Origin: Escherichia coli
Lineage (GTDB): Bacteria > Pseudomonadota > Gammaproteobacteria > Enterobacterales > Enterobacteriaceae
NCBI RefSeq assembly: GCF_030013205.1
Contig: NZ_CP122648.1
Reading direction: 5' to 3' (one strand)
Length of the DNA stretch: 64,000 nt
This document shows, one piece after another, positions 54,831 through 55,071 of this stretch; position 1 is the stretch's first letter; every line of letters starts with the position of its first letter. A program made the position numbers and the translations under genes. Under the pieces are notes generated by a model that was given only the letters and a program-made list of their open reading frames with translations, did not search any database and had not been told where the DNA came from.

Positions 54831-55024
54831 GACAGAATGTAAGAACGTAAATTTATTCCAAGCCGCTACGGAAGATGAAAAACGCAAGGTTGTTGAAAGC
54901 GTTGTGTTTTTTTATGGTAGTGCCGTCAGCAGGAATGTTGTCCAGGGCGAAAAGCTTCTTCCTCGTTTCGCCCTGCCTTTCTTAATATTTCCCGTGAAGA
55001 CTTTGCCCTCTGAATAACTCCCAT

Positions 55025-55050
55025 AAAAAAACCCGCCGAAGCGGGTTTTT
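55025..55050 (-). terminator. Rho-independent terminator downstream of rpoC
   Basis: Minus-strand AAAAACCCGCTTCGGCGGGTTTTTTT hairpin plus U-run 20 bp after the rpoC stop. Confidence 0.8.
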
Positions 55051-55071
55051 ACGTTATTTGCGGATTAACGA

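Follow-up and report, generated by a model that had tools for sequence, protein, structure and literature searches.

The thiH-rpoC interval and its features

In the window (the whole 64-kb stretch of Escherichia coli DNA analysed here), thiH, the last gene of the thiCEFSGH operon, runs convergently toward rpoC, and the two genes are separated by only 241 bp (Table 1). An earlier, sequence-only reading of this DNA had given the spacer that length, and the ORF coordinates bear it out; because the short spacer is a structural observation, chance is not at issue. The same reading had stated that the spacer holds no ORF above about 30 codons, a figure that is slightly low but fair, given that the longest ORFs lying wholly within the spacer have 36 and 37 codons on the + strand and 32 codons on the − strand. 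Its description of the spacer as mostly rpoC terminator and AT-rich DNA was accurate with regard to the terminator and to overall base composition (43.6% G+C, compared with 52.5% for the 64-kb window) but passed over other structured parts, namely, a hairpin followed by a run of seven T residues on the thiH side and, directly after it, a two-hairpin element with a G+C content of 55.7%. Across 901 bp around the spacer, the window and the complete genome of E. coli CFSAN018748 (NZ_CP028192.1) are 100% identical, and in the annotation of that genome thiH directly adjoins rpoC (WP_000653944.1).

Table 1. Features of the thiH-rpoC interval. Positions are those of the window unless preceded by L001, which denotes K-12 MG1655.
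Feature	Position	Strand	Description
thiH (2-iminoacetate synthase)	53697-54830	+	ORF of 377 aa; last gene of thiCEFSGH operon; left boundary of spacer
thiH-rpoC spacer (short allele)	54831-55071		241 bp; lacks sroH and yjaZ; from ORF list and K-12 alignment
Left flank shared with K-12	54831-54992		Equivalent to L001 1832-1993; 162 bp, 4 mismatches
thi-proximal hairpin and T7 run (probable terminator)	54876-54918	+	Stem at 54880-54909 in MFE fold
Candidate sigma-70-type promoter within thi terminator	54890-54918	+	−35 TTGTTG at 54890-54895, 17-nt spacer, −10 TATGGT at 54913-54918
Two-hairpin element	54919-54979	+	Hairpin 1 at 54925-54942; hairpin 2 at 54943-54975, with CU-rich loop CUUCUUCCUC
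Junction patch (putative deletion scar)	54993-55019		27 bp; stands in for L001 1994-2940 (947 bp); net difference of 920 bp
Right flank shared with K-12	55020-55071		Equivalent to L001 2941-2992; 52 bp, 100% identical
rpoC intrinsic terminator	55027-55050	−	CCCGC-TTCG-GCGGG, then T7 on − strand; T5 on + strand
rpoC (RNA polymerase beta' subunit)	55072-59295	−	ORF of 1407 aa; right boundary of spacer

The rpoC terminator was called by a terminator scan, its hairpin folds on both strands, and its core is identical in all 15 spacers from other Enterobacteriaceae that we compared. With T-runs on both sides, this hairpin is predicted to work in both directions and could stop both operons. A few weak Rfam matches at this position (rsmX, Trp_leader, istR, and Leu_leader) scored below the gathering score and were set aside as generic terminator hairpins.

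The thi-proximal hairpin is probably the intrinsic terminator of the thi operon, and an A-run upstream of it would make it potentially a two-way terminator as well. It has a long loop and was not flagged by a simple terminator scan. At the same position, a stronger GC hairpin followed by a T-run is found in Salmonella, Enterobacter, Lelliottia, Leclercia, Citrobacter sedlakii, and E. ruysiae. The stem is perfect in E. ruysiae (CGCAAGG/CCTTGCG; L030), and that of E. coli carries two substitutions in its 3' arm, which leave one mismatch and one G-U pair. Judged from these stems, the thi terminator of E. coli may be leakier than that of E. ruysiae.

The window lacks both sroH and yjaZ

In K-12 MG1655 (b3988-b3990), the same convergent genes are 1161 bp apart, and yjaZ (annotated as "heat-shock protein C"; 540 nt, 179 aa) lies between them in the rpoC orientation. 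The breakpoints were set by flush alignments of the window with K-12. The two sequences share the flanks listed in Table 1, including the rpoC terminator, and differ in the middle, where 27 bp of the window stand against 947 bp of K-12. Beyond the spacer, thiH is 96.8% identical to that of K-12 at the nucleotide level and the 3' end of rpoC is 99.8% identical.

The 947 bp found only in K-12 comprise the sroH promoter, sroH and its terminator, yjaZ, and the region upstream of yjaZ. The small RNA gene sroH occupies L001 2079-2239 (161 nt, in the thiH orientation) and matches Rfam family RF00372 with 201 bits, compared with a gathering score of 80. It is preceded by a promoter-like sequence, TTGTAA-17-TATGAT, at L001 2044-2072, which ends 7 nt upstream of sroH, and it has a terminator hairpin of its own.

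When the 947-bp K-12 segment was compared with the 64-kb window by BLASTN, only chance words were returned. RF00372 gave no match in window positions 54000 to 56000 even at E values of up to 1. K-12 YjaZ scores 430 bits against NCBIfam model NF007263, for which the cutoff is 324, and we found no member of this family (NF007263; Pfam PF27200) in the window, in that no ORF in the spacer exceeds 37 codons and the best TBLASTN match of K-12 YjaZ to the 64 kb had an E value of 0.28. The sequence-only reading had placed a K-12 gene of roughly 180 codons, yjaZ (htrC), between rpoC and thiH and had supposed, with some hesitation, that this strain lacks it. That placement was correct for MG1655, the K-12 spacer being far from short, and the alignment and the TBLASTN search that it had proposed revealed no hidden yjaZ homologue in the interval or, together with BLASTN, anywhere in the 64-kb window. 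Its passing remark on yjaA also held, TBLASTN yielding no yjaA in the window. The accompanying loss of sroH went unmentioned there; two genes are gone, not one.

The short spacer is a common, lineage-associated allele

E. coli has, at this locus, a common length polymorphism associated with lineage, and the window carries its short allele, which is no peculiarity of this strain. Its 131-bp junction, covered over at least 80% of its length, was present in 1630 of 5426 complete E. coli genomes (30%), and DNA matching K-12 yjaZ was present in 3738 of them, with coverage of at least 80% in 3724. The two classes add up to 5368 genomes, which leaves a few dozen that are configured otherwise, for example with partial matches. 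The median number of yjaZ sites per genome was one and the highest was two, and none of the sites was on a plasmid. The carriers of the short allele include O25b:H4-ST131, and the genomes of ST131, MS15052, CFSAN051542, and GN4738 have the same breakpoints as the window and the same ...GTGAAGA..TTGCCCTCTGAATAAC.CCCAT patch.

The loss of sroH is already on record, and the short allele is in that respect previously known and ordinary. Using parsimony on the presence and absence of small RNAs over 27 genomes, Skippington and Ragan (2012, Genome Biol Evol 4:330; PMC3318445) classed sroH as "paraphyletic," that is, as present in the E. coli-Shigella ancestor, and inferred losses on the "B2 + D" branch, in E. 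coli C ATCC 8739, in S. flexneri, and in S. sonnei Ss046. In the part of that study that deals with these losses, sroH is absent from the B2 and "D" references, and the "B2 + D" loss corresponds to the event described here as seen from the side of the small RNA. The breakpoints, the joint loss of yjaZ, the frequency of the allele, and the long-allele outgroups are what the present analysis adds to that part of their account.

The window carries yjaB at positions 31868 to 32305, with 95.9% identity to K-12 YjaB. The combination of yjaA absence and yjaB presence suggests a strain from a yjaA-negative phylogroup that is not typical B2 and would be compatible with D, F, or G, the phylogroup markers chuA, arpA, and TspE4.C2 lying outside the 64-kb window. 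That a strain apparently not of typical B2 type has its allele in common with B2 ST131 is consistent with a loss older than B2.

A different allele is found in O157-type genomes (for example, strain 7784; L003 2266-2709), which have kept sroH and have a 71-bp deletion inside yjaZ. Their "protein HtrC" (WP_000808338.1) is a 147-aa product, and their spacer, with sroH intact, is 1090 bp long, whereas in the window the whole segment is gone. The O157-type allele is a second, independent decay of yjaZ, which is dispensable and is decaying in some lineages. Both yjaZ and sroH are non-essential, and their loss holds no evident functional surprise. In practical terms, K-12-based lists of small RNAs and genes should not be assumed to be valid for B2/D-type strains, and the thiH-rpoC junction provides a simple lineage marker that could be scored by PCR from product size.

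YjaZ and SroH

The heat shock designation of yjaZ as htrC has been retracted (PMC11551758). In our searches, YjaZ matched its own family only (NF007263, "stationary phase growth adaptation protein"), and there was no match in our local copy of Pfam, no PADLOC defence model, and no solved structure of a relative. For SroH, a deletion mutant of K-12 was reported to be sensitive to envelope stress (PMC5389530), kbl was proposed as a target from gel shift assays (PMC6172242), and a biofilm screen detected no effect of its overexpression (PMC4606813).

The distribution of YjaZ homologues makes the family look horizontally mobile. Members are present on 559 plasmid records in PLSDB, mostly from Klebsiella, and homologues with ~50% identity are found in cyanobacteria; none was found on phage records. 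An E. fergusonii homologue with 78% identity lies on an 88-kb plasmid- or phage-plasmid-like record (CP099330.1; L025 6001-6540), and it was discarded as an outgroup because it is not at the thiH-rpoC locus. The patchy occurrence of the family, its presence on plasmids, and its absence from the locus in other genera (see below) imply that it entered Escherichia horizontally at some stage. The only "plasmid" match with 100% identity to YjaZ, NZ_OL790696.1, is a 4.8-Mb E. coli chromosome filed in PLSDB and is a database oddity. The family genes at L025 6001-6540 and L029 5600-6142, both on elements of plasmid- or phage-plasmid-like character, have genes for RdgC, a Dam-type methylase, HigB/HTH proteins, and a RecA-dependent nuclease nearby.

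The interval in other Enterobacteriaceae

We scanned genome contigs for the interval by anchoring on the 3' end of rpoC and its terminator, which gave 21 loci from other genera, one from a divergent Escherichia, and none from E. albertii, E. fergusonii, E. marmotae, or Salmonella; we recovered the Salmonella and E. ruysiae intervals through protein look-ups. thiH and rpoC are convergent neighbors in Citrobacter, Enterobacter, Lelliottia, Leclercia, Kosakonia, and Trabulsiella as well, with spacers of 0.75 to 5 kb. These intervals share with the window the gene orientation, the position of the thi terminator, the core of the rpoC terminator, and, in most cases, the two-hairpin element.

What lies between these landmarks varies. 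The spacers of most of the non-Escherichia genera examined contain genes for an orphan PTS IIB protein (101 aa) and a IIA protein (~105 aa), with no IIC partner nearby, often preceded by a gene for a 513-aa membrane protein and, in Kosakonia, accompanied by further genes; examples among L005 to L024 are L023 1344-2099, L019 7518-8517, and L007 2778-5537. The Salmonella spacer is 1459 bp long and holds unrelated small ORFs. Neither yjaZ nor sroH was found at the locus in Salmonella or in eight other genera. The thiH-rpoC interval is therefore a recurrent site of gene turnover, occupied by PTS genes, the 513-aa membrane protein gene, the Salmonella ORFs, sroH-yjaZ, or nothing.

Polarity of the length difference

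We consider it likely, with a probability of roughly 80%, that the short allele arose by deletion of ~920 bp, with sroH and yjaZ, from an ancestral Escherichia spacer of 1161 bp, leaving the 27-bp patch as a scar. The ancestral spacer would have held two independent small transcription units, one of them sroH, 161 nt long, oriented like thiH, and equipped with a promoter-like site and a terminator of its own, and the other yjaZ/htrC, encoding 179 aa in the rpoC orientation. Both units would have been lost, in an event of single origin, in an ancestor of the strain's lineage, and the thi operon terminator, the conserved two-hairpin element, and the rpoC terminator would be what remains. The convergent thiCEFSGH and rplKAJL-rpoBC transcripts of short-allele strains would then be kept apart by two terminators only, which lie ~110 nt from each other.

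The main evidence for this polarity comes from the other lineages of the genus. Three Escherichia outgroups were compared, namely, E. ruysiae, Escherichia sp. E4385, and the divergent "E. coli" E69. E. ruysiae and E4385 have the order rpoC-yjaZ-thiH with a spacing of exactly 1161 bp, and E69 has the same long-allele junction with both sroH and yjaZ; the YjaZ allele of the E69 type bears the label "MULTISPECIES [Escherichia]" and falls in a cluster that includes E. ruysiae and several Escherichia species. The occurrence of the long allele in these three divergent lineages implies that the short form is most likely a derived deletion. Furthermore, the E. ruysiae spacer is 93.0% identical to that of K-12, which matches the divergence of the flanking core genes (92.6% identity for thiH and 97.4% for the 3' end of rpoC) and so fits vertical descent.

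The same observations bear on the opposite polarity, in which the short allele would be ancestral and the 947-bp sroH-yjaZ segment would be an insertion derived from a mobile element and gained by the A/B1/C/E lineages. The patchy, often plasmid-borne homologues of YjaZ, the absence of yjaZ and sroH from this locus in every other genus examined, and a 27-bp patch that is no obvious remnant of the long allele could all be read in favor of such a gain. We nevertheless regard it as quite improbable. The boundaries and spacing of the long allele are the same in E. ruysiae, E4385, and E69, and its divergence tracks that of the flanking core genes, which places the acquisition before E. coli; no integrase, inverted repeats, or target site duplication flanks the segment; and the published parsimony on 27 genomes, in its treatment of sroH, also infers loss (PMC3318445).

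The junction patch

The 27-bp patch can be aligned to either end of the long-allele segment at only ~55 to 60%, about equally poorly in the two cases. In K-12, the imperfect direct repeats TTTCTTAAAAATTC, on the left, and TTCCTTAAATATTC, on the right, are separated by 920 bp, a distance equal to the length of the indel. They are identical at 12 of 14 positions, a score that was equalled in 56 of 1000 shuffles and is not significant alone. The deletion could have come about by slippage between TTTCTTAAAAATTC and TTCCTTAAATATTC or by illegitimate recombination between them, but this route is weakly supported. A clean excision between direct repeats is doubtful, because the patch matches neither end well and 56 of 1000 shuffles gave an equal repeat score.

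Among five short-allele genomes there are five versions of the patch, which differ by substitutions and 1-nt indels within window positions 54980 to 55026, and the other ~200 bp of the spacer are nearly invariant, with few differing sites. The only explanation that we can offer for this hypervariability is a lack of constraint or a local hypermutability. We looked for a long-allele relative with the window's patch at its right end, but the long-allele genomes closest to the strain, 43905 and M11957, with flanks 99.0 to 99.2% identical, have an ordinary long-allele right end. When the right ends of 15 spacers were aligned, the patch (...VKTLPSE-stop) had only a short, gapped resemblance to the 3' end of the PTS IIA gene (...RRLPLSNE-stop), and the idea that it is a relic of that gene was dropped as unprovable.

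A patch that differs by ~40% from any long-allele sequence, between flanks that are 97.5 to 100% identical, is also what would be seen if the short allele had been imported from another lineage by homologous recombination through the 3' region of thiH and the rpoC terminator; an import would account for a patch far more diverged than its flanks, and the existence of long-allele genomes with flanks 99% identical to those of the window is a hint of allele exchange between related backgrounds. We found no donor lineage with such a spacer, and the flanks have no step in divergence, the 96.8% identity of thiH to K-12 being ordinary for distant phylogroups and the rpoC 3' end being 99.8% identical. 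Moreover, the five short-allele variants differ mainly inside the patch, which points instead to the hypermutability or lack of constraint proposed above, and we regard an imported allele, too, as quite improbable. Finally, although our analysis covers 64 kb of the strain's genome, it is scarcely conceivable that yjaZ and sroH have merely moved elsewhere or that the short spacer is an assembly artefact, given the identical junction in 1630 independently finished genomes, the 901-bp identity to a complete genome in which thiH is directly followed by rpoC, the median of a single yjaZ site per genome with none on plasmids, and two allele classes whose sum of 5368 requires no overlap between them.

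A conserved two-hairpin element downstream of thiH

The two-hairpin element has survived all of the turnovers described above and, alone in this interval, may be worth more study. It is common to the short and long alleles and persists regardless of the downstream sequence; the copies in the window, K-12, and E. ruysiae are 100% identical, although the spacers differ by 7% overall. We found it in at least eight genera, including Escherichia, Salmonella, Citrobacter (C. sedlakii), Enterobacter, Lelliottia, Leclercia, Kosakonia, and Trabulsiella (for example, at L001 1920-1980, at L034 7223-7285, and, on the − strand, at L007 5378-5439), and it is missing from loci in which thiH and the PTS IIB gene adjoin, as in C. 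freundii L023 and Enterobacter sp. kpr-6 L012.

In the RNAalifold consensus of 15 sequences from at least eight genera, a hairpin of 5 bp leads straight into one of 9 bp, the loop of which is CU-rich. Compensatory double changes affect five of the nine pairs of hairpin 2. The proportion of paired cells is 98.1%, compared with 22 to 43% when the partners are slid, and there are 18 double-change cells, compared with 5.0 ± 1.7 in shuffles (0 of 500 reaching that number), although related sequences from Kosakonia and Trabulsiella have several of the double changes in common, so that independent events are fewer than 18. In hairpin 1, the changes from G-C to G-U fit the + (thiH-sense) strand only. 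A covariance model gave 68.3 bits in the window and one strong match per locus (53 to 78 bits), always just after thiH. The rest of the 347 kb searched, which took in the complete 64-kb window and 30 kb from K-12, gave no score higher than 23 bits, and the single copy per locus ruled out a dispersed repeat of the REP or BIME type. When the window, K-12, Salmonella, E. asburiae, and Trabulsiella were searched at E values of up to 1, no Rfam 15 family matched the element.

We hypothesize that a promoter is nested in the thi terminator immediately upstream of the element. Of 17 sequences compared, 11 have a TAnnnT motif at a distance of exactly 6 nt upstream of the element, and in another five the distance is 3 to 7 nt; in K. 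quasisacchari, the hexamer at 6 nt is CATGCT. A TTGnnn motif inside the terminator loop, with a 17- to 18-nt spacer, makes the best −35 candidate for 11 of the 17. The pattern was noticed post hoc, and a consensus promoter scan of the spacer called no promoter at 54890-54918.

It is conceivable, if doubtful, that positions 54890 to 54979 form an undescribed transcription unit, in which the nested promoter would drive a + strand RNA that serves as a leader in other genera and is free-standing in the short allele. Such an RNA may begin with the two covarying hairpins and present a CU-rich loop resembling an anti-Shine-Dalgarno sequence. In other genera, the equivalent RNA may be the leader of the downstream membrane protein and PTS IIB/IIA genes, in which case E. 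coli would have lost the genes and kept the element unaltered. Were this so, the deletion would have placed the element ~50 nt from the two-way rpoC terminator, giving an sRNA-like transcript of ~125 nt (roughly 54925 to 55052) that would be made in short-allele strains and not in long-allele strains.

A Klebsiella pneumoniae "sroH orthologue" with 47.3% identity is the least conserved of the set of Kim et al. 2012 (PMC3415461). Outside Escherichia, sroH was undetectable in all of the Enterobacteriaceae loci examined here. The orthology of the Klebsiella gene may be positional only, and it might instead match a transcript from the two-hairpin element.
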